DNA of 30,216 bases, from positions 1-30,216 of the forward strand of contig JBBQYG010000034.1 of NCBI GenBank assembly GCA_038208905.1, read 5' to 3'. Source of the stretch: Candidatus Sumerlaeia bacterium (GTDB lineage Bacteria; Sumerlaeota; Sumerlaeia; SLMS01). Shown piece by piece: positions 669 to 25,870 of this stretch; position 1 is the first letter of the stretch, and each line of letters opens with the position of its first letter. Below the pieces are notes generated by a model that was not told the origin of the DNA, searched no databases, and saw only the letters and a list, made by a program, of their open reading frames with translations. The position numbers were made by a program, and so were the translations under genes.

Positions 669-2476
669 CACGCGTCGTCCCCCGGCCACGAGCCAGCCAC
701 GCAGGCCGCGCGCGGCTTCATGGAGGCGGCCACCACCATCAATGGCCGACCCGAGGGCGAAACAAGCCGGAACGCATCGGCCGCGGCGGGAATGACGAAT
801 GTCTCCGCATAGGAATACTCCCGCGACCCGGCACCGGCGCACTCCACGCGCACCGTATCGCCCTCGACCAAGCTAAGGACAATGGCTGAGTTGAGCGTCT
901 CCACATCGATGGCATTGCCGAACTCGTAGCGGTGCACGTCATAGAAGTGGTGCGCATGGGTGGGCAGATGCACCACGCGCCATCCCTCGCCGGACTTGAT
1001 GACCGCGGGACGGGAGATCAACTCGCGCCTTGCAGATTCGCCGCGACGATCGAAGTAGAGATTGTCGAAGGCTCGCGCCACGTTCAACGGGCGCGGCTGC
1101 CCGTTCAGGTCCAGACGCATCCAATCGTACATCTTGAACGTGAAGATATACGGCGTCGCGCTGATCTCCAGCACCAGGCTGTCGATACCGGAGCAATGCA
1201 CCGTGCCGTTGGGAATAAGGAAGAGGTCGTGCTTCCGCGCGGCGTGGCGGAGCACGAAGTCATCGATGTTCACCGGCGCGCCGGTGGCGATGCTGCCCTC
1301 CAACGCCACGCGAAACTCCGCCGGTTTGATATCCTCCCGGAATCCCAGATAGACCTCCGCGCCCGGCTTGCAATCCAGGATATAGTAGGTTTCATCCTGG
1401 GTGAAGGTCTCGCCAAACTCCCGCCGTATATACTCGGGGCGCGGGTGGCACTGAACCGACAGGTTGCCGCCGGCGAAGGTGTCGAGGAAGTCGAAGCGTA
1501 TGGGAAACTCATAGCCGAAAGCCTCGGCGCAATCGCCCAGGATGGCGCGGTGCTCCTGAAACATCAGCAGGTCGAATGGGAACTCCAGCATAACGCCCTC
1601 GTGCTCCAGCAGCATGCCGTTCTCGGGCGAGATCAGCTCTAAGGACCAGGCGTAACTCGGTACATCGCCGGAGAGACCATCCACCCTTTCGCGAATCCAT
1701 TGCCCACCCCAGGGGCCGGGCTCGAACCAGGGGCGCGCGCGGAAGGGGCCGCGCGCCATGCGCGCGATCTCCCCGCGGAGGAGGGCGCCATCGATGATCC
1801 GCGGGTCGCCATGGCGCTGGCCGTCCACAAAGGCGTCGATCCGCGGCAGCAGGCGTGCCTTCTCCCTGTTGAGCACAGGCCAATCGACGAAGTAGAATCG
1901 CCTGTACTGTGCCGCGGGGTGTGGAGCGCGCTTTCCCAGCGAGCAGACAGTACCCGCGCGGCTGCGGAACTGGATCTCGTTCTTGGGTATATCTATATAG
2001 ACAAGGAAGGCCGAAGCATCCAGCAGCCCCGCGCCGGTGCCCACAACCACGACGGGCCCGGTCGCAGCGTCCACGGCGCGGCGAAGTCCTCCGGGGCGGA
2101 AGAACGCCTCCAGCGGCAGGGGGCAGCGGCGGCCAAACACGGGATCGCCTCCCCCGAGGAAGGGCTCAACCATGGCATCGAGATCCGCTTCAGGGAGGAG
2201 AAAATCGGCGGTGCGAATGATCTGCAGCCCAATGCCCTGCGTTTGTGCCTCGCGGCGGAGCGACTCGGCAACCTCGTCCCAGTCCACGCCAACGAATCCA
2301 TCCACCAGCACCACGCGATGTGGGGCCATTCGCGCCAGCAGTGAGGCATAGCCTTCCTCGATGCGGCCGCTCGCGATCGGTTGCGCCGGATAGATGTCAT
2401 AACGACCTGTCGGCGGCGCCGCGGGTCGGCGCGCGGGGATCAGGTGTTGCGTCGTTTTTCGCCGTGGGGGCGCCAT
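668..2476 (-). CDS. Class I mannose-6-phosphate isomerase-like cupin protein with N-terminal extension (602 aa)
   Basis: PWFEPGPWGGQW, FPIRFDFLDT, NLSVQCHP...QDETYYILD, LIPNGTVHCSG and VLEISATP...YDW match PMI type I cupin metal-binding motifs. Translationally coupled to both neighbours. Confidence 0.85.
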   Translation of the reverse strand: MAPPRRKTTQHLIPARRPAAPPTGRYDIYPAQPIASGRIEEGYASLLARMAPHRVVLVDGFVGVDWDEVAESLRREAQTQGIGLQIIRTADFLLPEADLDAMVEPFLGGGDPVFGRRCPLPLEAFFRPGGLRRAVDAATGPVVVVGTGAGLLDASAFLVYIDIPKNEIQFRSRAGTVCSLGKRAPHPAAQYRRFYFVDWPVLNREKARLLPRIDAFVDGQRHGDPRIIDGALLRGEIARMARGPFRARPWFEPGPWGGQWIRERVDGLSGDVPSYAWSLELISPENGMLLEHEGVMLEFPFDLLMFQEHRAILGDCAEAFGYEFPIRFDFLDTFAGGNLSVQCHPRPEYIRREFGETFTQDETYYILDCKPGAEVYLGFREDIKPAEFRVALEGSIATGAPVNIDDFVLRHAARKHDLFLIPNGTVHCSGIDSLVLEISATPYIFTFKMYDWMRLDLNGQPRPLNVARAFDNLYFDRRGESARRELISRPAVIKSGEGWRVVHLPTHAHHFYDVHRYEFGNAIDVETLNSAIVLSLVEGDTVRVECAGAGSREYSYAETFVIPAAADAFRLVSPSGRPLMVVAASMKPRAACVAGSWPGDDA

Positions 2477-3453
2477 CAGGAGTCCTTTTGCGATAGCTGT
2501 GGCGGGCGCGAAACCATGCGGGCAGCGCCGAGAAGGGCAGCCTCCTCAAACAGAGCGGAGGGACGTAAGGGAAAATCGAGACCGCCCGCGGCCATGGCGC
2601 GCGTCAGGGATGGTCCAAAGAATCGCCATGATCGCGCGACACTGCCACCAATCACGATGCCGAGGGGACGAAACGCCCGCGACCACGGGTCGAGGAACTC
2701 CGCCAGCAACTCGCCATACTGCCTGAACACCTCCAGCGCGCGCGCGTCGCCGCCGGCGGCGCGCGCCGCGATCTCCCGGGGTGACTCCGCGCGATTCCCA
2801 CCATTGGAGTTGTGCAGGGCCAGCAGCCCCCGACCAGAAAAGTGATCCTCCGCCGTGGCGCCGCGAAATGGCGCGTTGTACAGCCATCCATCGGGCGGCA
2901 CGTCGCCGCCCGTGGTTGCCACTTCTTCGCCGCGCAGGAAGGCGGACCCAAAGCCCGTGCCCAGGGTGATGCCCATGGCGTCGGGCATTCCGGCGAGCGC
3001 ACCTCGCCAGCACTCGCCCAGGAGAAAGCACTCCGCGTCATTGGCAAATTGGATGGGTACATCAGCGGCGAGCGCCAGGCGCTCGCGCACCTCTGCCCGG
3101 ATATTCCTGCCATAGAGGGACTCGTACTTGCCCAGCCCGCGAATCAGGCTGATGCCGCCGGGATAGTCAAAGGGTCCCGGCATGGCAAAGCCGACCCCAC
3201 CCAGTCGCGCGCCACCGCAGGCATCGCGCGCCTCGGCGAGTGCTCCGCACCACCGGTCCAGAATCGCCGCCGCGCTGGCGCCGCTGTCCACCGGCGCGTC
3301 GCGCCGACATCCCGGCATGGGTTCCCCGGTGGCGGCATCGATGGCGGCGCAGGAAATGTGAGTACCCCCGACATCGGCGCCCAGCACGATGCGCGATGTC
3401 GGGGGCGGGCTGACTGGTCGCCCCCCCGGAGGGAAGACTTGAACGATATGCAC
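2476..3453 (-). CDS. ROK family sugar kinase (glucokinase-like)
   Basis: LGADVGGTH phosphate-1 motif, GFAMPGPFDY, FANDAECF, GITLGTGFGS and VIGGSVA. Start moved from 3702 (which overlaps the pilin gene) to GTG 3453, downstream of AGGAGCAGGAAAG. No HTH, so a kinase rather than a repressor. Confidence 0.88.
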   Translation of the reverse strand: MHIVQVFPPGGRPVSPPPTSRIVLGADVGGTHISCAAIDAATGEPMPGCRRDAPVDSGASAAAILDRWCGALAEARDACGGARLGGVGFAMPGPFDYPGGISLIRGLGKYESLYGRNIRAEVRERLALAADVPIQFANDAECFLLGECWRGALAGMPDAMGITLGTGFGSAFLRGEEVATTGGDVPPDGWLYNAPFRGATAEDHFSGRGLLALHNSNGGNRAESPREIAARAAGGDARALEVFRQYGELLAEFLDPWSRAFRPLGIVIGGSVARSWRFFGPSLTRAMAAGGLDFPLRPSALFEEAALLGAARMVSRPPQLSQKDS

Positions 3454-3495
3454 GTGTGCTTTCCTGCTCCTGTGGGGGATGCCCCCCGGGGGCAC

Positions 3496-3509
3496 TGTGT
3501 ATGCACACA
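3496..3509. promoter_or_regulatory. Candidate operator palindrome TGTGT-ATGC-ACACA upstream of the ROK gene
   Basis: AT-rich inverted repeat in a GC-rich intergenic gap; resembles the box at 5357-5369. Confidence 0.4.
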
Positions 3510-3574
3510 TTTCACGCACTTTGTCCCGCGGCGGGGCTGGCGTGCGCGGGATTTCGTGCGTTGCGGCTTCCCGG

Positions 3575-4225
3575 CTAGAAGGTGCGGTTGCCCGGGCCTG
3601 CCACAACCACGTCGCCTTCGCTGATGGTGCCGTTGGTCGGGTCATAGATCGCCGTGGGCCCGGCTTGGAAGGCCGGCAGGAACGTGGGGAACTTGGCCGC
3701 AAAGGTGGCCTCTCCGAAGATCAGGTACTCGCCCAGATTGGACTTCTGATTGGGACCCGAGCTGGAGAGCGTCCATAGAAACGGCGTGGCGGCGGGATAG
3801 AGCGGGTCGCCCACCCGGGACGCGAGGATCAGGTCGCGCCACTGCTGCCCGAAGTAGCGATACTGGGATACCCTGTTCAGGTTGTCGGTCTTGTTGGGAA
3901 ACACGTTCGCCGGCACCGAGGTCAGATAGGCAATCGGCGTCGTCATGCGGGTCAGCGCAACGTCACCGTCGTTAACGCCAACCTTGGACTGCCAGAAGTT
4001 GCGATCCAGTGGATAGCGGTTGTTGTCAACAAAGTAGGACTCCAGCGCGGTGACCACCGTGCGCATGTCCGCGCGGGCGCGGGAAACCTTGGAGCGCGTC
4101 TGCGCCTCCAGGAAATTCGGCACGGCGATCGCCGCCAGGATGGCGATAATCGCCACGACGATCAGCAATTCGATCAGGGTAAAGCCAACCCTGCTCCTGA
4201 ATGGATACTTCATGGGCGGGGACAT
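3575..4225 (-). CDS. Prepilin-type N-terminal cleavage/methylation domain protein (GspG-like pseudopilin); start may be 4213
   Basis: G|FTLIELLIVVAIIAILAAIAVPNF class III signal with E+5; ALESYFVDNNRYP; GspG-like SSGPN; C-terminal YDPTNGTISEGD. Confidence 0.92.
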   Translation of the reverse strand: MSPPMKYPFRSRVGFTLIELLIVVAIIAILAAIAVPNFLEAQTRSKVSRARADMRTVVTALESYFVDNNRYPLDRNFWQSKVGVNDGDVALTRMTTPIAYLTSVPANVFPNKTDNLNRVSQYRYFGQQWRDLILASRVGDPLYPAATPFLWTLSSSGPNQKSNLGEYLIFGEATFAAKFPTFLPAFQAGPTAIYDPTNGTISEGDVVVAGPGNRTF

Positions 4226-4312: not shown

Positions 4313-5215
4313 CTAGTACATCATCCAGTCATTGACGGAGGTGACAGCGTTGAAGGGTTGCAGGTACTGGTCGGACTGACCGGCTGCGGGCGAATTTGGA
4401 TCCTCGCGGGCGCCTTCCCAGTACAGGTTGTCGATATAGAGGCTGGCGCTGGTGGCGCCATTGACGGTCAAGCTCCAGCCATTGCCGTCCTTGCTGGCCC
4501 CGCCCGTGAAGGGGATGGTCACAGACGGAGGTGCGCTGGTGGGGACGAGGTCGGTGGCGTAGAAATACGCGCCAGCGGCGCGCGCCGGCGGCTGTGTCCG
4601 GTCGCGCGGGTCGGCTTGGGGGGTCCCCGATACGCCAAGCTGAATCGTCAGCAACTTCCACTGGCTGGCGTTGGTCAGCGTGGCGATCGTGCTGATGCCG
4701 CCATTCGGGGGCAGGGGGGAGGCCCCAGCCAGGGCCGTTGTGCTGACCACCGCATTCCCGGCGCCATCGGCATCAATCGACACGTTGAACGTATGCACGA
4801 CGCTGTTGATGGTGTTGGTGTACGTCCACGTGGCGATATTCCCCGCGGTGGCCGGGATCGGGTCCACGTTGATGGCATACTGAAAGTATATCCAGTCGCC
4901 GTGCGCCTGGCCGTCATAGCCATCCGCCACCACCACGGACTGGCTCGCGTTCAGGCGATAGCTCCCCGTCCCCTCAAACGCCTTGTTGGTGACGCGGGTA
5001 CCCGTCCGGGTCAGCAAGGTGCCGGTAAGCGTAGCCAAGCCATCCCCGTCAAAGGGATCAACGGTGCCACTGGCGGCGGAACCATTCCCCTGGGTAAAGG
5101 AAGTCACGTTCTCAAAATCCTCGTCGATCCAGACGTTGGCCTGAGAGGCGCTCGTCAGGCCGAGGACAAGCCCCAGGGCCAGCGCGAGGTGAAGCAGCTT
5201 TCCGAATGAACTCAT
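4313..5215 (-). CDS. Secreted beta-rich hypothetical protein (300 aa), possibly lectin/jelly-roll, with C-terminal TSVNDWMMY tail
   Basis: ATG 5215 follows GAGGAG; Sec signal MSSFGKLLHLALALGLVLGLTSASQA|; mature N-terminus IDEDFE and late LYIDNL are typical bookends of jelly-roll/CBM-like folds. Confidence 0.8.
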   Translation of the reverse strand: MSSFGKLLHLALALGLVLGLTSASQANVWIDEDFENVTSFTQGNGSAASGTVDPFDGDGLATLTGTLLTRTGTRVTNKAFEGTGSYRLNASQSVVVADGYDGQAHGDWIYFQYAINVDPIPATAGNIATWTYTNTINSVVHTFNVSIDADGAGNAVVSTTALAGASPLPPNGGISTIATLTNASQWKLLTIQLGVSGTPQADPRDRTQPPARAAGAYFYATDLVPTSAPPSVTIPFTGGASKDGNGWSLTVNGATSASLYIDNLYWEGAREDPNSPAAGQSDQYLQPFNAVTSVNDWMMY

Positions 5216-9274: not shown

Positions 9275-9482
9275 TACCCTCAGGAATCGACCTTGATGGT
9301 CGTGGATTGTCAGTGCCACCATGCAACCATAGGAGATGCCCAAGGCCCTGCATCTTTTCCCCCCCCGAGGAAACTCGATTCCCCCCCGCGATCAGGGTCC
9401 AACTGATCGCGCCTTCCAAGCCAAACCGACCGGAAGCCACTTTTTGGCGACCAGTCACCTTCTCCTCCAAGGAGCCACAAAG

Positions 9483-12400
9483 ATGAAGGCATTCTCGACT
9501 CGGGTCAAATCGGGTCTGGTTACGCTGGGTGTACTTGCTGTTACAGCGCTGAGCGGCATGGCGCAGGGCCAGATCGTTCTGGCATCGGATTCCGCCGCCG
9601 CAGCCACATATGCCACGGACTTGGCGAACGGCGCCAATGGCGGCTCGGGCTTCAGCGCTTGGGCGCTCACGCCGAATCCCGACACTGGAACCGCAGGATT
9701 CTTCACGTTCACTTCCGCCGATAACGGCGGCGCGGCGACCATCGATACCAGTTCGCTCTCCTGGGGGCTGTTTGCCAATAGCGTCGCCACGGCGTCCGCC
9801 GTCCGCCCCTTGACCACGGCGATGAAGGTTGGCGACACCTTCCGCATCAAGCTCGACAACGGCAACGTCGCCGCCACCCGCAGCGTCGGCTGGGGCCTTC
9901 GCTCCTCCGGCACGAACCGCGTGGAATTCATCTTCGCCGGCGGCGGCACGGAATACCAGCGCATCGACAACGCCGGCACCAATGCCATCACGGGCTTTTC
10001 CTTCACGAACCAGGCCGTCGACTACGCCGTGACGATCACGGGAACGAACACCTACTCCGCCACGATCACGCCGGTTTCAGGCGGGCCCTTCACGGTGAAC
10101 GGCACCCTCGCGGCGTCCGGCTCCATCAACGAACTGCGCGTCTACAACTTCTCGGCCGGTGGCGCGCCGGCGGACAACCTCTTCGCCAACTCCATCTCCG
10201 TCACCGACAACGCGCCAACCCTCTCAACCCTCGCCCGCGTGACTTCCTCCTCCAACAAGTTCGCGCAGGTCAACTTTACGGCTAGCTTCACCGAGCCGGT
10301 CAGCGGATTGACCGCCAGCAACTTCGCCCTGGCCACAACGGGCAGTGTGGCGGGCGCCTCGATTCTCGCGGTCACCCCCAACGGCGGCTCCGCTCCCCAG
10401 CAGACCTGGAACATTCTGGTCGATACGGGCTCCGGCTCTCCCGGCACCGTGGGCCTGAACCTCGCCAATAGCACTGCGGTCGTTGACACGGCTGCCCAGG
10501 CGCTCACCAACAGCACCCTGACCGGTGAAGTGTACAGCATTGATCGCAGCCTCGTTCGCACCTGGACGGGCGGCGCCGACGCGGGCCGCGGCGACTTCTT
10601 CATCGGCACCTCGACAGGAAGCCAACCGGCCGCCGACTACGCGACGCTCGAGACCTTCCTGCGCGACTTCAATGGAACCCGTCAGCTCCGCATGAACACG
10701 GGAACAGTCACCGTTGCCACAACCACCGTCACCACGGCGGCTGGTAACTTCCTGACAGACCCGGGTCTTGCCGGCGGACTCGTGGCGGGCGATAGCGTCT
10801 TTCTGGGCGGTAGCGCCACCGGCACGGTTGCCTGGGCCGGCAATACGGTCACAGGAACGGGCACTGCCTTCACGAACGAAGTCGCTATCGGCGACATCAT
10901 CATCGCGGGCGGCAACGTCCGCACGGTGACGGCCGTTGGGAGCGCGACGAGCCTCACTTACTCGGGCGCCACGGCGACCGTGGCGGCTGCTACCGTCATG
11001 ACAGTCCAGCGCACGCGCACGGTGACGGGTACTCCCACCGCCACCACCTTCACGATCAGCTCGGGCGCCGCCAACATCACCACGGCCATCAGCCTCGCGG
11101 GCACCCGCCCGGTGACCACCACGGCCATGGTCGGCAACACGAACCTCTACCTGCTGAGTGATCTGACCGAGGCGGCCAATCTGGCTATCGGCAAGAACAC
11201 CGGGGGCTTTAACCTCCGCATTAAGCCCTTCGCGGGAACCACCCCAACGATCAACCTCACCGGAGCGATCGCCAATCTGGGATGGAGCAGCCACTTCCTG
11301 GTCGGCACCGCGGCGTTCGGCAACTTCTACAGCCTCATTGCCACGAACAACGTGATCATCGACGGATCGAACCTGTTCAACGGTACGACCCGCGACCTGA
11401 CGATTGTCAACACCGCCGCCGGTACCGAAGGCGCCGTGGGCATCGTTCGCGCGGTCGGCAGTTCCACGGGCTTCCAAGTTCGCAACACCAACATCGCGCA
11501 GTTTTCCGCTACCGGTGGAGCCGCTGGTGTCCAGTTCACCGGACGCAGCCAGGACGGCAGCACCAACCTGCTGCCCAACAACGGCGTGGTGGACAACTGC
11601 TTCATCACCGCCCTTTCCCAAGTCGGCGGAACGCAAGGTGTCGGCGTTGTGACCAGCGGGTCGCAGAACCTCGTTACGGCTGTCGGCATGACCGGCCTTC
11701 AGGTCACCAACAACCTGATCTACGTGGGCCAGCGCGGCGTGACACTCGCCATCAACGCGGGCACCACGATTACCGGCAACACCTTCCGCTTCACTAACCG
11801 TGTAGCCGCCAGTTCCCCGTCCGGCGTGGCCATCGTTGGCTACAACGGCGCCACGGGCTTCACGATGGACATCAACAATAACATGATGGACCGCGTGGAG
11901 TTTATTCAGGCGGCAGCCGGCGGTGCCCTTGGTCTCGTCGCCATCAGCTCCGGCCCCACAGGCTCGGTCACCATCAATATCCAGAACAACTTCATCGGCG
12001 GTTACATCGCGACCAGCGGGACCGCGGCCGACGGCCTGATGAATGCCATCAACCTTTCCACGGGTGTGGCAAACCCCAGCTTCGTCATCAACGTGGATCA
12101 CAACTCAATCGTTCTGCCCGCCACCACGGTTCTCACCGGCGTCACGGCGGGCCGTGTGGCCGCCATCGCCGCCACCAGCGCCGTGGGTACCTACACGCTC
12201 AACGTGCGGAACAACAACATCCGCATGGGCACCACCACAGCCACCACCTCCCATGGCATTTTCATCGCCAAGACCGTCAACACCACGGTCAGCGGCAACA
12301 ACCTGTCCATCAACTCTCCCGCCAACTACGCCCTCATCGGCGCCAGCACCTTCGCCACCTTTGCCACCTATCAGGTAGCGGACGGCGCGGCGCAGAACGT

Positions 12401-15400
12401 TGACAGCTACCCGAGCGCGACCTTCCCCCGCTGGGCCAGCGCCGGTGACAACCAGCTCGCCGACCTGCACTACACGGGCACACCCGCCGGCCTCAACGCC
12501 GCCGCTTTGGTCGGGGGTGTCACCACCGACATCGACGGCGATACCCGCACCGTCGGCAATAACCTCCCCGGTGCCGATATCATAGGCGCCGCGGCCACCA
12601 ACTACAACTGGGTGGGTGGCACGACCGGCCGTTGGTCGATCGCGTCGAACTGGTCTCCCGCTCGCACCACAGCGCGCTGGAACGACATCCTGGTCTTCGA
12701 TGGCGTCACTGCGGCAGTCACCGGCGTTCGCGATTCACACATCGGCGGACTTCGTCTGATCAACAACGCCAACGTTACTCTGTCGACGAACGGCAGCAAC
12801 GCGATGACGGGTTCGGGTGGCTTTGAAACCGGGCACCAGTCTCGCCTCCTCATTACCAACGTCAAGAACTCCTCCACCCTTCCCCCCACGGTCGCGAACA
12901 GCGACTTCCTCGTCTCGGCCGGCTCCACGCTCACCTTCGGTGGATCGACGACCGTGTTCGTCGACATCTCCGGCGGCGCGTTTGGCTACGTCGCTGGCGA
13001 TGTCGTTTTCGCCTCCACGGCCGCGAACAACGCGATGCGCATTCTCAATCGCACCGCGAGCGGCACACTGTTTGACAACGGATCAACCTGCGCCATGGCT
13101 CCGACCTCTACCGGTGGCCAAGGCGGCTTCGGTCTCGTCTCGACAGAAGGCATCAACCAAGGTGTTCAGTTCGCCTCGGGATCGCACTACCATCAGGGTG
13201 CCACCAAGGCGGGAGTTCGCAACGGCGGCACGGGCAGCTCGCCCTTTGTCTCCGGCGCCCCCAACGGCCTCCTCTTCTTCTCGCCGGGCGCCAGCTACAC
13301 CACTTACGACCTCGGCCCGGCCGTCAGCGGCCGTACCTTCGGCTCATTCATCTGGCGTGGCGCGAGTGCCGTTTCATCGACCGGTAGTGGAACCTTTACC
13401 TTACAGAACGACCTCATCAGCCGTCCCAGCGGGAGCACCGTGGCGGCCTACACCATCGGCCTGACCACCGGTACAGGCAATGCCGTTCTCGTGAACGGCA
13501 ACCTCCTGATCGAAACGGGCGCCGGCGCCATCATCGACGGCGGCGTCCCTGTCGCGGCCAACTCCGTCTTTGCCGTCCGTGGCAACATGACCATTCAGGA
13601 CACGGCGCTATGGACGCCCAACACCAGCGCCAATCGCGTCTATCAGTTCGACGGCTCGGCTCTCCAGAATATCAATCTGGCCGGCAAGACCTACCCGAAC
13701 GCCACCTTCAACAACTCAACCGGCTTCACGCTCACTGGCGCCGGAACCGTGGGCGGCATCCTCACGCTCACCAGCGGTGCGGTCGCCACCACGGCATCCA
13801 ACAGCCTCACCCTGAGCAACGACGCCAGCATCGCGCTGGTTCGGACCTCGGGCACCATCAGCGGTCCGTTCACCCGCGGCATCAACGCGGCCACGACCAG
13901 CTACACTCGCGACTTCCCCATCGCCACGGGCGCCGTCTTTAGCCCCGTTTCCCTCAACATCACCGCCGCCGGCACCGGCATAGGCTCACTCACCGCCGAG
14001 GCCATCTCCGGTTCCGTTGCCAATGTCCCCGCCAGCGCCACCGCCATCACGAGGCGCTGGACCCTTACGCCGGCAACCATCGCCGGCTATGCCGCAACGG
14101 TCGCCTTCCAGTATGACGACACCGATCTGGGTGCCATCACCGAAGGAAACCTGATCGCCGCATCCTACAACGGAACGTCGTGGACCCAGTATTCCACGAG
14201 CATCAATGGCAGCACCAATACGGCCACCGTTGCCGGTGTCACCGCGGCCCAGATCGCGGGAGCACAGTACTGGACGCTCTATGTGCCCAGCGCTGCCGCC
14301 GGTGTCTCCACTGTGTCCCTTCCCTTCGGCAACGTCGGTGCCGGGTCGACCTCCGACCTCACCTTCGACGTCACCAATACGGGCACGGCAGGCTTGAGCG
14401 TTTCCGCCCTGAGCCTCACCGGCGCCGACCCGTCGGCCTTCTCCATCGTCTCTCCCGCAGTGCCGTTCGGACTCACGGCACCGCCAAGCACCCAGCAGAC
14501 CGTCACGGTCCGCTTCTCTCCGTCGGGCGTCGCCACCTACAGCGCCACGCTCACAGTCACCAACAACTCGGGAACCAACCCGACGGTTTCCCTCACCGGC
14601 GCGGGAACGTGTAGCTACAACGTCTCCCCGGCAACCACCCAGAACCTTCCGGCCACAACGGGAAGCACCTCCGCCGTGTCCGTCACCACAACCAGCGCCT
14701 GCACATGGGACGTCACAGGCATCCCGAGCTGGCTGACGCTCACCAGCCCTGGAAGCCTCCCCGCCACCGGCAACGGCTCGGTGATCTTCACCGTCGCCGC
14801 CAATACGGGAATCGCCCGCAGCGCCACAGTCACCATCGCGGGCACAACCGTCACCTTCAACCAGGCCGACGGCTGTACCACAAGTGCCGCCCCGACCACC
14901 CTTCCCGTTGTCGCCATTGGCGGAACCGGTCTCTCCGTTGCCGTCACGGCAAGCGGGAGTGGTTGCACCTGGACGGCTGCTGAAACGCCTGATGCCGCCT
15001 GGATCACCAACCTGACGGTTGGCGGCACAGGCTCCGGAAACGCCACCTTCGACGTGGCCGCAAACACGGGCATCGCCCGCAGCACGACCCTTACGGTGGC
15101 GGGCACCACGGTCACCATCAACCAGGCCGACGGCTGTAGCCTCAGCGTCGCACCCGGCACCATCAGCGTCGGACCCAACGGCGCCTCCGGCGTCTCGGCC
15201 GCAGTGACCGCAAGCAGCGGCACCTGCACCTGGACGGCGGCGGAAACTCCTGATGCCGCCTGGATCACCAACCTCACGGCGGGCGGCACTGGCTCCGGCA
15301 GCGCGACCTTCGACGTGGCGGCCAACGCCGGCGCCACCCGGTCGGCCACGCTCACCGTCGCTGGTCAATCCGTCACCGTCACCCAGTATGCCACCACTGC

Positions 15401-16142
15401 CTCCGCATCGCTGGACTTCGGCTATGTGAAGACAGCAGGCGCTGGCGGTTCACCGGTCTCCCTCAATGTCGTCGTCACCAACGATAGCGGCACCACCATC
15501 AACTACAACGTCACCTCCGCGGCGCCATACTCCGCGTCGGCGACCTTCGCCGCCACACCGGGCACGTCCAACCTGGCAGTCCAGTTCGCCCCGACGGCGC
15601 TTGGCTTGGCCACGGGCACGGTGACGCTCACCCCCAACCCGCCAAACGCCCAACTCCCTAACCTCACGACGAACGTCTCCGGCAACGGCTTCTCCGTCAT
15701 CCAGGGCATCAGCGCCGACATCGACGGCGCCACTGGTGGCACCGTCACCGTCGGAGCTGGCGGCACCTTCACCAACTCGAAGTTGATCGTCCCCCCCGGC
15801 GCCTTCACCGGCACGCGCACGATCGTCATCGAGCAGGCCATCGTGAATGCCGGCAACCGCACAGCCATCGAGATCACCGTCACCCCATCCACCGCCTTCA
15901 CCAACCCGGCGACCCTCGAAATCGAGTTCGAGAATCCCACCGACGTCACCAGCGGGATCCTCAACAACATGACAGTCGGCCGCCTCAACCTGGGCATCTA
16001 CAACATCGTCGGCGGCGGAACGCCCACCCTCATCAGCGGCAACCGGCACAAGGTCACCTTCGCCACAACGACCTTCTCCACCTACGCCGCCATACCGGGC
16101 GCCACCTCCATCGCCGACTGGAACCTCATCAACCAGGAGTAA
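9483..16142 (+). CDS. Giant secreted multidomain surface protein/adhesin (2,219 aa): Ig-like, beta-helix, two ASH/choice-of-anchor-D-like, three BACON and ZU5-like domains, C-terminal TSIADWNLINQE tail
   Basis: ATG 9483 follows AAGGAG; Sec signal MKAFSTRVKSGLVTLGVLAVTALSGMAQG|; T/G/A/S/N-rich. Motifs: FTEPVSGLTASNF (Ig), NNxI repeats (beta-helix), TTDIDGDTR, LPFGNV...TNTG...VRFSP (ASH), CTW...ANTGIARS (BACON), GGTV...LIVPPGAF...FSTYA (ZU5-like). Domain names are by motif recognition only. Confidence 0.88.
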   Translation: MKAFSTRVKSGLVTLGVLAVTALSGMAQGQIVLASDSAAAATYATDLANGANGGSGFSAWALTPNPDTGTAGFFTFTSADNGGAATIDTSSLSWGLFANSVATASAVRPLTTAMKVGDTFRIKLDNGNVAATRSVGWGLRSSGTNRVEFIFAGGGTEYQRIDNAGTNAITGFSFTNQAVDYAVTITGTNTYSATITPVSGGPFTVNGTLAASGSINELRVYNFSAGGAPADNLFANSISVTDNAPTLSTLARVTSSSNKFAQVNFTASFTEPVSGLTASNFALATTGSVAGASILAVTPNGGSAPQQTWNILVDTGSGSPGTVGLNLANSTAVVDTAAQALTNSTLTGEVYSIDRSLVRTWTGGADAGRGDFFIGTSTGSQPAADYATLETFLRDFNGTRQLRMNTGTVTVATTTVTTAAGNFLTDPGLAGGLVAGDSVFLGGSATGTVAWAGNTVTGTGTAFTNEVAIGDIIIAGGNVRTVTAVGSATSLTYSGATATVAAATVMTVQRTRTVTGTPTATTFTISSGAANITTAISLAGTRPVTTTAMVGNTNLYLLSDLTEAANLAIGKNTGGFNLRIKPFAGTTPTINLTGAIANLGWSSHFLVGTAAFGNFYSLIATNNVIIDGSNLFNGTTRDLTIVNTAAGTEGAVGIVRAVGSSTGFQVRNTNIAQFSATGGAAGVQFTGRSQDGSTNLLPNNGVVDNCFITALSQVGGTQGVGVVTSGSQNLVTAVGMTGLQVTNNLIYVGQRGVTLAINAGTTITGNTFRFTNRVAASSPSGVAIVGYNGATGFTMDINNNMMDRVEFIQAAAGGALGLVAISSGPTGSVTINIQNNFIGGYIATSGTAADGLMNAINLSTGVANPSFVINVDHNSIVLPATTVLTGVTAGRVAAIAATSAVGTYTLNVRNNNIRMGTTTATTSHGIFIAKTVNTTVSGNNLSINSPANYALIGASTFATFATYQVADGAAQNVDSYPSATFPRWASAGDNQLADLHYTGTPAGLNAAALVGGVTTDIDGDTRTVGNNLPGADIIGAAATNYNWVGGTTGRWSIASNWSPARTTARWNDILVFDGVTAAVTGVRDSHIGGLRLINNANVTLSTNGSNAMTGSGGFETGHQSRLLITNVKNSSTLPPTVANSDFLVSAGSTLTFGGSTTVFVDISGGAFGYVAGDVVFASTAANNAMRILNRTASGTLFDNGSTCAMAPTSTGGQGGFGLVSTEGINQGVQFASGSHYHQGATKAGVRNGGTGSSPFVSGAPNGLLFFSPGASYTTYDLGPAVSGRTFGSFIWRGASAVSSTGSGTFTLQNDLISRPSGSTVAAYTIGLTTGTGNAVLVNGNLLIETGAGAIIDGGVPVAANSVFAVRGNMTIQDTALWTPNTSANRVYQFDGSALQNINLAGKTYPNATFNNSTGFTLTGAGTVGGILTLTSGAVATTASNSLTLSNDASIALVRTSGTISGPFTRGINAATTSYTRDFPIATGAVFSPVSLNITAAGTGIGSLTAEAISGSVANVPASATAITRRWTLTPATIAGYAATVAFQYDDTDLGAITEGNLIAASYNGTSWTQYSTSINGSTNTATVAGVTAAQIAGAQYWTLYVPSAAAGVSTVSLPFGNVGAGSTSDLTFDVTNTGTAGLSVSALSLTGADPSAFSIVSPAVPFGLTAPPSTQQTVTVRFSPSGVATYSATLTVTNNSGTNPTVSLTGAGTCSYNVSPATTQNLPATTGSTSAVSVTTTSACTWDVTGIPSWLTLTSPGSLPATGNGSVIFTVAANTGIARSATVTIAGTTVTFNQADGCTTSAAPTTLPVVAIGGTGLSVAVTASGSGCTWTAAETPDAAWITNLTVGGTGSGNATFDVAANTGIARSTTLTVAGTTVTINQADGCSLSVAPGTISVGPNGASGVSAAVTASSGTCTWTAAETPDAAWITNLTAGGTGSGSATFDVAANAGATRSATLTVAGQSVTVTQYATTASASLDFGYVKTAGAGGSPVSLNVVVTNDSGTTINYNVTSAAPYSASATFAATPGTSNLAVQFAPTALGLATGTVTLTPNPPNAQLPNLTTNVSGNGFSVIQGISADIDGATGGTVTVGAGGTFTNSKLIVPPGAFTGTRTIVIEQAIVNAGNRTAIEITVTPSTAFTNPATLEIEFENPTDVTSGILNNMTVGRLNLGIYNIVGGGTPTLISGNRHKVTFATTTFSTYAAIPGATSIADWNLINQE
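14610..15389 (+). repeat. Three tandem BACON-like repeats of 87-88 aa
   Basis: Units start at Cys codons 14610, 14874 and 15135. Units 2 and 3 share CTWTAAETPDAAWITNLT-GGTGSG-ATFDVAAN with near-identical DNA. Confidence 0.85.
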
Positions 16143-16170: not shown

Positions 16171-16216
16171 GAGAGCGCCCCGGGATCATCTTCGATCCCG
16201 GGGCGCTTTCCTTTTT
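16171..16216 (+). terminator. Rho-independent terminator
   Basis: GAGAGCGCCCCGGGATC-atcttc-GATCCCGGGGCGCTTTC followed by CTTTTT, about 30 nt after the stop codon. Confidence 0.88.
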
Positions 16217-16330
16217 GTGGACGACGCAGAAGAGCCCTCATCGAATGCCACGCCGCACCAACGGCAAGGCACACTGCTTCGGAACCACGCCCCGAAACGC
16301 CCGTAAATCTTGGATTGTCAGCGATTGAAC

Positions 16331-16406
16331 TGGAGCGGGAAACGGGATTCGAACCCGCGACCCTCAGCTTGGGAAGCTGATGCTCTACCAACTGAGCTAT
16401 TCCCGC
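16331..16406 (-). tRNA. tRNA-Gly (anticodon CCC)
   Basis: GCGGGAATAGCTCAGTTGGTAGAGCATCAGCTT-CCC-AAGCTGAGGGTCGCGGGTTCGAATCCCGTTTCCCGCTCCA: 76 nt, canonical cloverleaf, encoded CCA. Confidence 0.97.
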
Positions 16407-21437: not shown

Positions 21438-22424
21438 TCAGACCTTGATATTCATCCAGAAAAGGCGGATTGTCGGATCGCCTTCCTTGCGGCCCCAGCC
21501 AAACATTCCCCACAGGGGCCCGTGGGACGATTTCTTCGCGATCCCCTCGCCATCGGCGATGGTCTTGCTGGCCCAGAGGATTCCCCCGATCACCAATCGG
21601 TTGGATACGATCGAAACCAGCTTGGTCTCCGTCTGCTGCGTCGGCGTGTTCAGGTCCAGATCCTTATAAGTGCGGATGCTGCCACGATTGTAGTGATAGC
21701 CCAGGAAGCCAAAGAACGGGCCGTGGGATACCATCAGGTCGTTGGTGCCGTCGGGCTTTGGCGACTCGGCGCGAAAGCTCGTCCACAGGCCCAGCCCCGG
21801 CAATCCTCCCAGCAGCGCGGGCGCCGCCAGATAGCCATTGAACTCCGTGTTGGCCTGCTTGGCGTTGAACTTGGAGAAGAACGGCCCAAGGGTCCACAGG
21901 CTGGTGAACCAGGAGACCGACGTCCCTTCGTCCGCCTTCATTTGCAGAAGGCTGAAGAAGAGCGGGATGCCCGTCGCGTTCAGGTCGCCCTTATCCTTCA
22001 GCGTCCCCTCCTCGAAGCTGTTCGTCCACAGCGGCGTCCAAACGATTCCGCGCTTGCCAACGGCCTCCTCCTGACCCGGGACGAATTCGTACTCCGCGCC
22101 ACGGATGCGCAACGGAAGGAAGAAGAAGAACGTGCCGAGGTCGTTCCACGTGAAGCTCGTGTATGTCGCCGACTGGCGATCCGCGGCCACCTTGAAGTCG
22201 CGAAAGCCGAGGTTGAAGGGCAGCATCCAGAAGCGGGTGGAGTTGAATCCGAGCACGCGCTTGTCCGTCGCGTCGGCGGTCACCGTCGTCCATAGCGCCG
22301 GGTCCATGCGGCCGCCCTCGGGAATTTGCGCCCCGCGGAGTACGTCGGCCTGACGAAGGGTCTGGCAACCCGACGTGGCGAGAATTGCTACGAGCGCGAT
22401 GAAGATGGAAATGTAACGAATCAT
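21438..22424 (-). CDS. Hypothetical lipoprotein (328 aa), aromatic and beta-rich
   Basis: ATG 22424 overlaps the upstream TGA (ATGA) and follows GGGGAG; MIRYISIFIALVAILATSG|C is lipobox-like; repeated PLW/PLFF/PFF motifs. Confidence 0.75.
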   Translation of the reverse strand: MIRYISIFIALVAILATSGCQTLRQADVLRGAQIPEGGRMDPALWTTVTADATDKRVLGFNSTRFWMLPFNLGFRDFKVAADRQSATYTSFTWNDLGTFFFFLPLRIRGAEYEFVPGQEEAVGKRGIVWTPLWTNSFEEGTLKDKGDLNATGIPLFFSLLQMKADEGTSVSWFTSLWTLGPFFSKFNAKQANTEFNGYLAAPALLGGLPGLGLWTSFRAESPKPDGTNDLMVSHGPFFGFLGYHYNRGSIRTYKDLDLNTPTQQTETKLVSIVSNRLVIGGILWASKTIADGEGIAKKSSHGPLWGMFGWGRKEGDPTIRLFWMNIKV

Positions 22425-24430
22425 GCGGAGGAACTCCCCGGTTGTTGTGGGCCATTGGCCAAAGGTCCGGAGACGGTGCGCGAGCGAGGGGCGCGGGGAA
22501 AGAGCATTCTCCCGCCGATCGCCGCGATGATCGATAGGGCCATCGCCGTCAGGAACAGACCGACGCGGTAGCTGAAGGGGCGGTATTCCCAGCGGACCAC
22601 TTCGCCGATCGCCATTCCGTCGAGCGGAATCGATAGGCCCGGCGCCTTCGCGCGAAAGACTTCCCGGTCCCCCGACCACGCCACAAATCCCGGCATCACG
22701 GCGCCGGGAATCGATGTGGCGACGCCGCGCTTCGCCACCCAGGCGTTCATGCCAACGGCAGTCCAGGGCGCGGCATCTGTGGAGCCGTCCAGCGCCAGCA
22801 ACGAGCGCGGAGGATTCGTGAATCTTGCGACCACCGAGACGCCGTCGCCACCCTCCGCGTTGGCGGGAGCCAGGACGTGGCCGATTCTCCACGCGGCAAA
22901 CCACTCCTTGGTGTTGAAGCCCAGCTCGCGGTCGCGGGCTTCCTTGATGCCAAGGAATACGGGGTGATAACCGTTCAACGCGCGCCGCCCGTGCAGCATC
23001 GGGCGAAGCCCCAACTCGTTCGTCGCGTCGTGCGTCTCCCATTCGATACCGCGAAGGGCGATGAACTCGTCGGCCTCGGTCGATCGTATCAGGTAGGCCC
23101 GGTAGTCAGCCCATGAATGGCGGAGAAGGAAGGTTCGGTTCTTCGATGCAAGATCAGCGATGCAGGCCGCGAGGAGAAGCACGGCGAGTCCACCCGCCAT
23201 TGCGCGATTCGACTTCTGCCGCGCCAGTCTCCCCACCACATCCAATCCGACCCCCGCCAGCACCGCCACCGAGAGGGATGCCACACAGAAGAACGTGGCG
23301 GGGCTCCTGAACGAGCGAAATCCCGGCAGCCAATCATAGAGCACACGATAGAGCGGCGTATATCTCCCCAGCCCCACCAAAATCGCGATCAGCGCCAGCA
23401 CGGCGAACAACACCGCCGGGAGCGGCACGCGAAACCGTCGTCGATTCCTCCGCATCATGGAAAGCACCAGCCCCGCGAGCGCCAGCGCGAGGACCGGGCG
23501 CCCTGCATAGTCGCTGACGATGCGCTCGCCCCAGTCGCCTGTATAGACGTCGCCCTCGATGCTCGACCCCTTCCATCGCCGGGAGGCGAACTCCATCAAC
23601 TCGCCGGGGGGATAGCTCGTCTCAACAGCCTCCTCAAAACCCACCCCGCCCGCGCGGTTTGAGACCGCCGCCATCTCCATGCCGGGAATCATCTGGGCCG
23701 CGCCAAGCGCAAGCCCCAGCGTGGCCATTCCAACGTATGCCGGTATGGCGAGCCAGCGGCGCCGCCTCTGGAGCGCAAGGCTCCACGCCACCACCAGTCC
23801 CGATGTCGCCAGCGCCGCATAGGCGATCTGCGGATGCCCGCCCAGCAGCATCATGCCGATGGCGCCGCCTCCGGTCGCGATTCCGGGCCCGATGCGCCGT
23901 CCGCGCGCGATCATCACCGCGCCGGCCACAGCCCACGGCAGCCACCCCAGCGCCACCACCTTCTGAAAATGTCCCGCGTGGATCAGCGTCACCACGTGCC
24001 CCGTCAGCATCCACGAGGCGCCCACGGCAAGCGTTGCGGAGAACCTTAGCCCCAGCGCCCGCCCCAGCACCATGCCGCCAATCCCCGCGATCCACAGCGC
24101 CATCCACCAGCCCCACCACTGGGCGCGCGGATACTCGAAGAAGTGCAGCGGCCACACGTTGGGCGAGAATGGAGTCCAGAAGAACGCCCCCAGCGTGGGG
24201 ATGCCGCCCTGCACCTGTGCGTTCCACAGGGGGATGGCGCCGGGGAACCGCGCCAACTGCTGCTGCATCCACAGGTGCGCGGGCGCGTCGTGGAACACCG
24301 TGTCGCGGCCGTAGAGGAACCAGTCGCCGCCGAGCGGAACCTGCTGGCGAGTTCCCAGCGTGAGCTGCGCCCACGCCAGCAGCGCAAAGAGCACCGCGCC
24401 GCCCAGATAGTGCCTCGCCGTTCGCGGCAT
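22421..24430 (-). CDS. YfhO-like multi-pass membrane protein (GT-C glycosyltransferase)
   Basis: Many TM segments; PLWNAQVQGGIP, LLGGHPQ, LPGFRSFRSP and C-terminal YRPFSYRVGLFLT are typical of YfhO-family proteins. Confidence 0.8.
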   Translation of the reverse strand: MPRTARHYLGGAVLFALLAWAQLTLGTRQQVPLGGDWFLYGRDTVFHDAPAHLWMQQQLARFPGAIPLWNAQVQGGIPTLGAFFWTPFSPNVWPLHFFEYPRAQWWGWWMALWIAGIGGMVLGRALGLRFSATLAVGASWMLTGHVVTLIHAGHFQKVVALGWLPWAVAGAVMIARGRRIGPGIATGGGAIGMMLLGGHPQIAYAALATSGLVVAWSLALQRRRRWLAIPAYVGMATLGLALGAAQMIPGMEMAAVSNRAGGVGFEEAVETSYPPGELMEFASRRWKGSSIEGDVYTGDWGERIVSDYAGRPVLALALAGLVLSMMRRNRRRFRVPLPAVLFAVLALIAILVGLGRYTPLYRVLYDWLPGFRSFRSPATFFCVASLSVAVLAGVGLDVVGRLARQKSNRAMAGGLAVLLLAACIADLASKNRTFLLRHSWADYRAYLIRSTEADEFIALRGIEWETHDATNELGLRPMLHGRRALNGYHPVFLGIKEARDRELGFNTKEWFAAWRIGHVLAPANAEGGDGVSVVARFTNPPRSLLALDGSTDAAPWTAVGMNAWVAKRGVATSIPGAVMPGFVAWSGDREVFRAKAPGLSIPLDGMAIGEVVRWEYRPFSYRVGLFLTAMALSIIAAIGGRMLFPRAPRSRTVSGPLANGPQQPGSSSA

Positions 24431-24438
24431 CGCGCTGG

Positions 24439-25806
24439 TCAGTACTGGATCGGCTGGGCGGGCGCCAGCATCAGCAGGCGCGCCACGCGATTCAGCTCGT
24501 GGACGATCACACGGCGGCCCTCTGCGGAACCTTCGGTGTCCTGCGCGATCTGGTCCGCGATCAACTGCACGTCGCCGCGGACTTTGAAGATGTCCTTGAA
24601 CGTCACGTCGCGGGGATCGTCGAGGGCCAGAAACTCCCCCAGTTCGTCAAAGAACAGGAGCACCGGATCCGCGCGGTCGATCCGCGTGGTCAACGTGGTC
24701 ATGATCGTGGCGGCGGCGGCGATGGGATCGGACTCAAGGGCGCCTGTCATGGTCCAGAACATATCCGGCGGCGGAAGGGGCCGACGCGTCTCGAAGTCCG
24801 GCTCCAACACCAGGAAACCCGTGGCAGGGATGTCGCGGAGCGGTGGGCCGAGCGCGACAATTCCCTCCTCTTTTTCCACGGCCACCAGAAAGGGACGTTC
24901 GCCGGTGGCGGCCAGGTCCAAGTCGCGCACTCCGTCGGCGATACCATCGGGCGACACGATCAGCGCCACCTCGCTCGCCACGCCGCGCCGGTACAGCGGC
25001 ATCCAGGGGGCGTTGGGGGCAACCGCCTCCGCGGAGACGAGAAGGCCCGTGACAAGCTCGAATCGCTCTTCCTGAACGCGGGCGCAGATGGACTCGACGA
25101 AGTGTTCCAGTTGGCCCTGCCGCCAGCGCTCCATCGCGCGAAACTGGTCCGTCGTCGGATTCGTCAGGAATGCCTCCAGATCGAGTCCCAGCTCTGCCTG
25201 AATCCGGCGCAGGCTGCTATACCCCAGGTGGCTCCAGGTCTCCGGCGTGTCTCCCGATTCGGGAAAGCTCCTGAAGTCGAAAAACAGACCGTCCACCGGG
25301 TAGCCGTCCACCAACTCGGCCAAAAGGTTGCCAAGGTATCGGCGGTACTCGACGCTGGTCCAGCAGAACAGCCCCGGCGCCCCGCCTCCCGCATCGAATT
25401 GGTGGTTTCCCTGATAGTCGCGCATCAGCCACTCGCCATTGGCGCGGGCCAGCTCGCCCAGCTTTCCCGTCCCGGGAACTCCCGCAGCCAGGAAATCCAC
25501 CAGCAGCCAAACGGAGAACGGATACTCCCTGGTGATGGAGAGCGCCAGATGCCCGGGGCACCGGCCCCCGCGCAGCCGACCCGACCGACGCGTCTGGAAA
25601 AGCGATTCCCCCTCGAAAAATGCCGGGATCAGCACGGTATTGTACCCCCGCGCCTGAATCTCTCCCAGGGCGTTTCGCAGGTCGGTTTCGTCGGCCAGAA
25701 ACTCAGGCGGGACGAAGCAAGCGCGCGTTTGGAGCGCCAGAGCCACGGGCGCCTCGTTGAGGCGGGCGATTGCCTTTGACAGGCGAATTTCGGAGTCGGA
25801 TAACAT
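24439..25806 (-). CDS. Glycoside hydrolase-like 10 (DUF187) TIM-barrel protein, divergent
   Basis: GYNTVLIPAF, EWLMRD and YRRYLGNLLAELVDGYPVDGLFFD resemble GHL10 motifs; start assigned to ATG 25806. Confidence 0.6.
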   Translation of the reverse strand: MLSDSEIRLSKAIARLNEAPVALALQTRACFVPPEFLADETDLRNALGEIQARGYNTVLIPAFFEGESLFQTRRSGRLRGGRCPGHLALSITREYPFSVWLLVDFLAAGVPGTGKLGELARANGEWLMRDYQGNHQFDAGGGAPGLFCWTSVEYRRYLGNLLAELVDGYPVDGLFFDFRSFPESGDTPETWSHLGYSSLRRIQAELGLDLEAFLTNPTTDQFRAMERWRQGQLEHFVESICARVQEERFELVTGLLVSAEAVAPNAPWMPLYRRGVASEVALIVSPDGIADGVRDLDLAATGERPFLVAVEKEEGIVALGPPLRDIPATGFLVLEPDFETRRPLPPPDMFWTMTGALESDPIAAAATIMTTLTTRIDRADPVLLFFDELGEFLALDDPRDVTFKDIFKVRGDVQLIADQIAQDTEGSAEGRRVIVHELNRVARLLMLAPAQPIQY

Positions 25807-25870
25807 GCTGCACGGATGGCACCACAGTCGCCGCCGCAACCGCAATGGAATCGAGCAAAGCAACACCCAG

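Follow-up and report, generated by a model that had tools for sequence, protein, structure and literature searches.

The window analysed here is a 30,216-nt stretch, positions 1 to 30,216 of contig JBBQYG010000034.1, of Candidatus Sumerlaeia bacterium (GenBank assembly GCA_038208905.1). Two of its genes, for a 300-amino-acid (aa) protein (P0001; 4313-5215, minus) and for a giant protein of 2,219 aa (P0010), encode otherwise unrelated proteins with export-type N-termini that end in the same short tail, which an earlier note on this DNA had proposed to be a sorting signal. A longer reading of the giant open reading frame (ORF), P0002, spans 9336-16142 on the plus strand; P0010 is P0002 from Met49. 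The features of the two genes are listed below (pLDDT, predicted local distance difference test).

4313..4342, minus: P0001 C-terminal tail, T-S-V-N-D-W-M-M-Y plus stop (sequence, homologues, AlphaFold2)

4343..4414, minus: P0001 linker, residues 268-291, indel-rich, with a small conserved P-F-[DN] just ahead of the tail (alignment, low pLDDT)

4415..5137, minus: P0001 cargo fold, residues 27-267, a predicted jelly-roll beta-sandwich of lectin-like or carbohydrate-binding-module (CBM)-like shape (AlphaFold2, Foldseek)

5138..5215, minus: P0001 signal-peptide-like N-terminus, residues 1-26, ending S-Q-A before N27 (heuristic only)

9480..16142, plus: gene of the 2,219-aa exported giant protein P0010 (the collection's own gene prediction)

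12588..14246, plus: domain X, residues 1037-1589 of the giant protein P0010, in which a beta-sandwich comes after a beta-helix (phmmer, AlphaFold2)

14292..14573, plus: choice-of-anchor D / ASH-type Ig-like domain of the giant protein (NF012200, 57.9 bits, cut-off 45)

15633..16097, plus: last folded domain ahead of the giant tail, with the final strand T-T-F-S-T-Y-A-A-I (BLASTP)

16104..16142, plus: giant protein tail T-S-I-A-D-W-N-L-I-N-Q-E plus stop, after a P-G-A linker (sequence)

P0001 ended in A-V-T-S-V-N-D-W-M-M-Y and a stop codon, with the tail codons at 4313-4342. The C-terminus of the giant protein (9480-16142, plus) was TSIADWNLINQE, and its ORF closed with G-A-T-S-I-A-D-W-N-L-I-N-Q-E and the stop, the tail lying at 16104-16142 (plus). 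The coordinates and sequences of both tails in the earlier note were exact. Both N-termini looked Sec-like by a crude heuristic, as the note had also stated. Apart from the tail, no further similarity between P0001 and the giant protein (P0002) was detected by BLASTP (best E 4.7), and the P0001 family and the family of domain X gave an hhalign probability of 0.5%. This agreed with the claim of a shared, strictly terminal motif on otherwise unrelated Sec-type exported proteins.

When the window was scanned in its six frames, the pattern [ST][ST][VILA].[DEN]W matched only these two sites, 3 and 6 residues ahead of the stop, and the checked translations of the other complete window proteins carried no such motif near the C-terminus (0/13), which was also as claimed. 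A more specific pattern, S[VI].[DE]W.[LMI][FIYVM], was built from homologues of P0001 only. Its per-position probability was 3.8e-7 in the window protein composition; it matched the end of the giant protein, and the number of matches expected over the C-termini of the 14 other window proteins was 5e-5. The shorter pattern [VI].[DEN]W.[LMI] gave nine matches in six frames of the window and three related loci (162,854 codons). Four of them were within 6 aa of a stop and belonged to exactly the four tail-bearing genes; the other five fell in short frames (26-68 aa) or in an antisense one. The shared tail is real and far above chance expectation. A shared DNA element behind both tails was rejected, the only common codons being those for T-S and D-W.

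Relatives of P0001 were collected in two ways. A word-indexed search (8,000 scored candidates of 165-525 aa) gave seven at E<=0.001, and one scan of species-representative genomes gave 99 pattern matches, from which three P0001-type loci were confirmed: L001, whose record title names Omnitrophota, and L002 and L003, with Sumerlaeota in both titles. The alignment of the family (A2) contained ten sequences, P0008 being omitted as a 236-aa fragment that ends before the tail. P0003 (99% identity to P0001) was not counted, which left nine non-redundant rows. The Trp was present in 8/9 rows, an acidic or Asn residue before it in 9/9, Val at position -3 in 7/9, and Leu, Met or Ile at +2 in 8/9. The exception was L003, with the C-terminus S-A-S-D-S-L-Y-I-D (10811-10843). 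The tail persisted in homologues down to about 32% identity, and it recurs in relatives that include those of two metagenome-assembled genomes (MAGs) titled Sumerlaeota, a group for which the earlier note had mentioned similar tails.

In these rows the tail columns had a mean commonest-residue fraction of 0.54 and a gap fraction of 0.00. The folded domain also scored 0.54, whereas the 23-residue linker scored 0.32 with 42% gaps. The motif does stand after a linker, as described earlier, and the linker is not conserved. Judged from the alignment, the P0001-family tail is conserved under selection, equally to the fold and unlike the linker.

AlphaFold2 on A2 (mean pLDDT 68.3) predicted a jelly-roll sandwich that ends near residue 267; residues 270-300 had pLDDT below 50. 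Foldseek with this fold returned 188 matches at E<=0.001, with a best TMq of 0.41, all to generic concanavalin-like lectin or CBM folds; the predicted concanavalin-like assignment is accordingly a generic one. PDB sequence searches with the profiles of both families gave no match at E<=0.1. A second conserved terminal element was seen in the P0001 family: the mature N-terminus, directly after the predicted signal-peptide cut, was near-invariant (A-N-[VIL]-W-[IL]-[DN]-E-[DN]-F-[ED]; 5113-5137, minus).

P0049 and P0150 have C-terminal regions homologous to the last folded domain of the giant protein (BLASTP 36-38% identity, E 1e-10 to 1e-37). This domain had no Pfam match, and a relaxed scan (E<=5) of the last 169 aa gave nothing useful. 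Word-indexed searches with the last 199 aa (against proteins of 350-2000 aa) and with residues 1990-2268 (against proteins of 1247-3969 aa) found only the giant protein itself. Exhaustive phmmer with its last 1,200 aa against 1.84 billion representatives gave 9,126 proteins at E<=0.001, of which the best 150 were examined. Most of these matched through the repeated BACON-like and Ig-like part.

In the 149 non-query proteins among these 150 (216,801 aa), [VI].[DE]W.[LMI] matched eight times, and all eight matches were within 6 aa of the C-terminus; 3.15 matches were expected anywhere and 0.015 at the ends. The carriers were P0049, P0072, P0094, P0111, P0112, P0116, P0127 and P0150. Domain X (about 550 aa) was found in 12 of the best 150 by local phmmer with P0127. 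It matched no Pfam or NCBIfam family and had no relative of solved structure. Nine of these 12 proteins, including the giant protein, had the Trp tail. The other three (P0103, P0119 and P0142) ended in a Trp-less L-P-V-x-L-x-x-[FL]-x-x-[DE] (last 11 aa). The Trp-less variants of these three and of L003, at the same position, may represent another version of the tag, or a tag in decay.

In the six short domain X proteins the tail was 0-4 aa past the end of the domain X match. In P0150, P0049 and P0010 it was 353, 468 and 630 aa past domain X, beyond other domains. The tail stayed terminal despite the inserted domains, which indicated that it tracks the C-terminus and not domain X. The AlphaFold2 model of P0127 had a beta-helix and a C-terminal sandwich (mean pLDDT 86.5), with the last strand at residues 559-564 and pLDDT below 50 at residues 568-575. 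That the tail is part of its own fold was rejected from the low pLDDT of this segment and of P0001 270-300.

These data also bear on whether the likeness means anything. Convergence or chance acting on two family-specific C-terminal strands, with no shared function, would fit the finding that just two unrelated families carry the tail in the data examined. It does not fit well with the expectation of 5e-5 for the family-derived pattern at another window protein's end, with the strictly terminal position (8/8 matches, and 4/4 real genes), or with the disorder predicted in both folds. We regard this explanation as very improbable.

In all, 17 non-redundant tails were tabulated; the rows come from two families and hence are not independent. 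The earlier question whether the motif is confined to the two window proteins is answered in the negative by these relatives, all of which belong to the two unrelated families. The consensus was [STA]-S-[VI]-x-[DE]-W-x-[LMI]-hydrophobic, with D commonest before the Trp and the end 3-6 residues after it. Counted from the Trp, the positions were occupied as follows.

Position -5: S, T or A in 16/17

Position -4: S in 9/17

Position -3: V or I in 16/17

Position -1: D in 14, E in 2 and N in 1 (D/E/N in 17/17)

Position 0: W in 17/17, by construction

Position +2: L, M or I in 17/17

Position +3: mostly F, I or Y

The number of residues from the Trp to the C-terminus was 3 in four tails, 4 in eleven, 5 in one and 6 in one. 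The final residue was usually polar and was aromatic in 3/17. Pro, Ser, Ala and Gly were frequent in the sequence ahead of the tails. All 17 carriers had hydrophobic N-termini preceded by K or R, as scored by the crude heuristic (a hydrophobic window with K/R) for signal peptides.

When the 200 aa ahead of the tail were clustered by BLAST for 16 of the 17 carriers (P0005 was left out), three classes were obtained: the P0001 family (seven), the C-terminal domain of P0010, P0049 and P0150 (three), and the short domain X proteins (six). The latter two have domain X in common. By these comparisons, the independent evidence is two unrelated families in three upstream-domain contexts, and not many families.

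The tail was next to be placed among known sorting signals. No sorting-domain model in Pfam or NCBIfam matched the tails or the whole carriers, so the motif is outside the defined sorting-domain hidden Markov models, as the earlier note had supposed. The type A domain of the type IX secretion system (T9SS; TIGR04183 / PF18962) was absent from P0001, P0002 and their last 49/79 aa at E<=1, and from 11 carriers or variants at E<=0.1. A different result came from 15 tail-less homologues, which were chosen by eye for their C-termini. T9SS type A was above the cut-off in four of them (P0051, P0067, P0073 and P0155), MYXO-CTERM was above the cut-off in one and just below it in another, and nine had no sorting-domain match. 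A sorting signal would be expected to show this pattern, with T9SS or MYXO-CTERM domains on homologous cargo in other lineages, and the sequence comparisons support it.

The available part of the text by Haft (10.1101/2023.06.07.544157) gives eight attributes of small C-terminal sorting signals. They include a strongly hydrophobic transmembrane segment after the motif (4) and a terminal basic cluster (5), a signal peptide on most carriers (6), carrier pairs that are alike only in the signal (7), and absence or replacement of the signal in homologues of other lineages (8). Compared with this list, the tail has attributes 1, 2, 3, 6, 7 and 8 and lacks 4 and 5. For attribute 1, 17/17 tails ended 3-6 aa after the Trp and 8/8 pattern matches were terminal. 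For attribute 2, two carriers lay within a 30-kb window. For attribute 3, V/I was found at -3 in 16/17, D/E/N at -1 in 17/17 and L/M/I at +2 in 17/17, in rows that are not independent. For attribute 6, 17/17 N-termini passed the crude heuristic. For attribute 7, the P0001/P0002 pair (BLASTP E 4.7, hhalign 0.5%) represents two unrelated families and not "numerous pairs". For attribute 8, T9SS type A was found in 4/15 and MYXO-CTERM in 1/15 of the tail-less homologues. The view that, apart from attributes 4 and 5, the tail behaves like a sorting signal by the attributes tested is plausible and partly supported.

The tripartite signals (LPXTG/sortase, PEP-CTERM/exosortase, MYXO-CTERM/myxosortase and GlyGly-CTERM/rhombosortase) resemble the tail in being short signature motifs at the extreme C-terminus of signal-peptide proteins. 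As far as the available text describes them, they also occur in several copies per genome region, on unrelated carriers, with another signal on the homologues. Unlike the tail, they have a transmembrane segment and an Arg/Lys cluster after the motif. The earlier note had set the tail apart from PEP-CTERM and LPxTG on this ground, and correctly so: it has only 3-6 residues, with at most one K or R, after the Trp.

T9SS type A (TIGR04183) resembles the tail in being C-terminal, Sec-dependent and without a membrane anchor, and in its place in homologous multidomain proteins. The T9SS C-terminal domain, however, is a folded beta-sandwich, and its type A model has 72 positions, against 8-12 residues, predicted disordered, in the tail, which was described from the start as far shorter. 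With attributes 4 and 5 lacking and no T9SS model matching, the tail falls outside both the tripartite class and the T9SS class.

Two other signals were compared. The WxL domain of Gram-positive surface proteins has a Trp-x-Leu-like motif near the C-terminus, which resembles the tail; Pfam-A scans showed no family at the C-terminus of any carrier. In the beta-signal of outer membrane proteins, a beta-barrel closes with an aromatic last residue. The tail differs from it in that the final residue was aromatic in 3/17 and the carrier models were jelly-roll and beta-helix, not barrels.

The tail is strictly terminal, conserved and predicted disordered. It is found on unrelated folds with signal-peptide-like N-termini, and it is replaced by known sorting domains in homologues. 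We interpret it as a short linear motif that would be read in trans by an envelope partner, for export or for surface attachment, and we give this interpretation an even chance of being right. A flexible linker would join the strictly C-terminal tail to proteins that leave the cytoplasm via Sec. After export, a trans-acting partner in the periplasm, in the outer membrane or at the cell surface would read the tail, and would either pass the cargo outward or hold it on the surface. The tail would in this way do the job that T9SS domains and PEP-CTERM/MYXO-CTERM do elsewhere, without a membrane-spanning segment. We infer the existence of the partner, its place of action, and whether the tail is cleaved or not.

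Several observations weigh against this interpretation. All the carriers reached through the giant protein have domain X, so that independent support comes from only two unrelated families, and the tail was found in 0/138 proteins without domain X among the best 150 of 9,126. The Trp was lost in the relatives L003, P0103, P0119 and P0142. Some signal-peptide proteins had no tail, namely the solute-binding proteins and a 371-aa metalloprotease-like ORF of the window and two secreted-looking enzymes in L001. Just 3-6 residues follow the Trp, which leaves no transmembrane segment (attribute 4), and no tail had more than one K or R after it, which leaves no basic cluster (attribute 5). In the absence of these two elements, an intramembrane or membrane-anchored transpeptidase (sortase-like) mechanism cannot be assumed. 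The variation of the Trp-to-carboxyl distance, from 3 to 6 residues, speaks against simple PDZ-type end recognition. Lastly, no partner, peptidase or cleavage was identified to go with the tail.

The same variation bears on a quality-control signal or pro-peptide, in which a C-terminal processing protease or a chaperone of the periplasm would recognise the tail as a degron or a removable cap rather than as an address. C-terminal peptides are ligands of PDZ domains of the Prc/Ctp and DegS types, and a hydrophobic/aromatic motif near the free C-terminus of exported proteins would suit them. The distance to the carboxyl end, however, was not fixed (3-6 residues), the final residue was usually polar (aromatic in 3/17), and a general degron would not be expected to have a conserved acidic-Trp core confined to some of the exported proteins. 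Such a role seems improbable.

A different possibility arose from the strands that precede the tail. In the six short domain X proteins, a last strand [FL]-S-[DE]-W-[TV]-L was found 5-9 residues ahead of [VI]-x-D-W-x-[LMI], and the last strand T-F-S-T-Y-A-x of P0010 and P0049 had the same hydrophobic/aromatic spacing. These are what might be expected if the tail mimicked the last beta-strand and either inserted into a neighbouring molecule or swapped with the last strand of its own protein. Such strand complementation or self-assembly would let the proteins polymerise or dock onto each other and would need no sorting machine. Foldseek local matches of the C-terminal sandwich pointed in the same direction: the FIIND of NLRP1 (7crw_A, prob 0.99, 152 columns) and GAIN (8oek, prob 0.99, 178 columns). 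In the FIIND and GAIN folds, the bond before the last strand is cut autoproteolytically and the terminal strand is held non-covalently. The E-values of the two matches were 0.098 and 0.15, however, with TM-scores below 0.3, which makes them a lead only. Moreover, the last strand of the P0001-family jelly-roll, L-Y-I-D-N-L-Y-W, was unlike the tail and does not fit the intramolecular version. We consider strand complementation unlikely. The last strand ahead of the tail looks like a first copy of the motif in the C-terminal 25 aa of P0072, P0094, P0111, P0112, P0116 and P0127, and in the window at 16060-16139 (T-F-S-T-Y-A).

The neighbourhood of P0001 suggested another way in which the tail might be read. 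The prepilin-type genes of the four loci were as follows.

3575..4225, minus: prepilin-type gene of 216 aa with a GspG/PilA-like N-terminus, directly downstream of P0001 (N_methyl; GspG model 54.8 bits, below cut-off)

8366-8995 in L001: prepilin-type gene

10960-11595 in L002: prepilin-type gene

10945-11583 in L003: prepilin-type gene

A P0001 homologue was followed by a prepilin-type gene of about 210 aa in 4/4 loci, at a spacing of 87-163 nt, and no terminator-like site was found between the two in the window. The prepilin-type proteins were 49-67% identical across the loci (60-67% between the window and the two Sumerlaeota MAG loci). The disordered tail might thus be an export signal that binds a pilin-like protein of a type IV filament or of a type II secretion system (T2SS) endopilus, which would push the cargo through a secretin. 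On the other hand, pilin-like paralogues are very numerous in such genomes, which makes the adjacency weak, and the giant protein had no pilin neighbour in the window. A complex prediction of residues 38-216 of the pilin-like protein (4-row alignment) with P0001 252-300 (10-row alignment) gave scores of 0.00 and 0.00 without controls and bears neither way.

There is a precedent for such a route. In the available part of the source, TcpF has a disordered export signal at its N-terminus, to which the minor pilin TcpB binds (PMC10120004). In TcpF/CofJ, as described there, a protein exported through Sec is addressed by a short stretch at one terminus that is disordered, which resembles the tail (PMC10120004). 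TcpF differs in having its signal at the N-terminus and on one cargo only; the tail is C-terminal and found on several cargos. Taken together, we think export by a pilus-like machine quite unlikely.

We return to the favoured interpretation, the reading of the tail in trans. The earlier note had called the tail a lineage-specific tag for outer-membrane export, perhaps through the T2SS/pseudopilus, or for surface anchoring. The shared terminal motif on unrelated exported proteins holds and extends to their relatives; its sorting function is putative, and the T2SS/pseudopilus route a conjecture. As to lineage, one tail carrier was in the MAG titled Omnitrophota (L001), several had a low-GC-style composition, and the ESM Atlas look-alikes of two domain X carriers fell in clusters "commonest Bacteroidota", with the phylum known for 5-9 members, a weak lead on the cargo domain and not on the tail. 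With the Omnitrophota carrier and mostly Bacteroidota look-alikes of the cargo domain, a restriction to Sumerlaeota is not established.

A more specific proposal may be tentatively made, with rather less confidence than the general one. The tail may define a new sorting or surface-docking class, an anchor-free mini-tag of about 10 residues, which Sumerlaeota and uncultivated lineages close to them would read in the periplasm or at the outer membrane. Its reader could be a dedicated receptor (e.g. a beta-sandwich lacking the last strand) or pilin-like, and its cargos would be many, from 300-aa lectin-like to 2,000-aa adhesin-like proteins.

Among the papers listed by full-text literature searches, none describes this motif. 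In the available part of a paper on Sumerlaeota genomics (PMC8092238), the terms "C-terminal", "sortase" and "outer membrane" were absent, and "secretion" and type IV pili appeared once each. We found no account in print of how large adhesin-like and glycan-binding proteins reach the surface in diderms outside the well-studied phyla. To our knowledge, the known small sorting signals all keep their cargo in the membrane through a transmembrane helix until cleavage by a sortase-like enzyme, and the only widespread anchor-free signal we know of is the T9SS domain, which is folded and tens of residues long. A disordered tag of ten residues, if true, would imply a different recognition principle, and would provide a handle for finding the machine by phylogenetic profiling. 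Annotation would improve, since the tail would predict a cell-envelope or extracellular location for "hypothetical" proteins. The tail could also become a compact targeting or docking peptide.

The pair of P0001 and the prepilin-type gene sits in a sugar-use neighbourhood, with a ROK kinase, a PMI-like 600-aa protein, a solute-binding protein and permeases; those of L002 and L003 also had a large mannosidase-like ORF. As listed, the ROK-family ORF (2476-3702, minus) and the pilin-like gene share 128 nt, at the end of the latter. The Pfam match of the ROK-family ORF begins at residue 107, which suggested that the true start is probably further downstream.

The 371-aa ORF (28175-29290, minus), which has a signal peptide, gave a weak match to the metalloprotease model NF038122 (27 bits, cut-off 80), and a relaxed Pfam scan (E<=5) returned only FG-GAP (E 0.14). 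It ended in D-L-N-L-D-G-K-L-D-C-S-D, which is calcium-loop or dockerin-like and represents another kind of C-terminal module in this genome.

The stretch 21438-25866 (minus) has a row of three large ORFs (534, 669 and 475 aa), the first two overlapping as listed. They matched no Pfam or NCBIfam family, and the one of 669 aa resembles a multi-pass membrane protein. A relaxed Pfam scan (E<=5) of three ORFs without an assigned family gave nothing useful.

Downstream of the giant gene by 190 nt was a tRNA-Gly (CCC) at 16331-16406 (minus), and between the two lay a GC-rich hairpin with a T-run (about 16176-16217). From the position of this tRNA, the solute-binding ORF listed from 16310 starts later.

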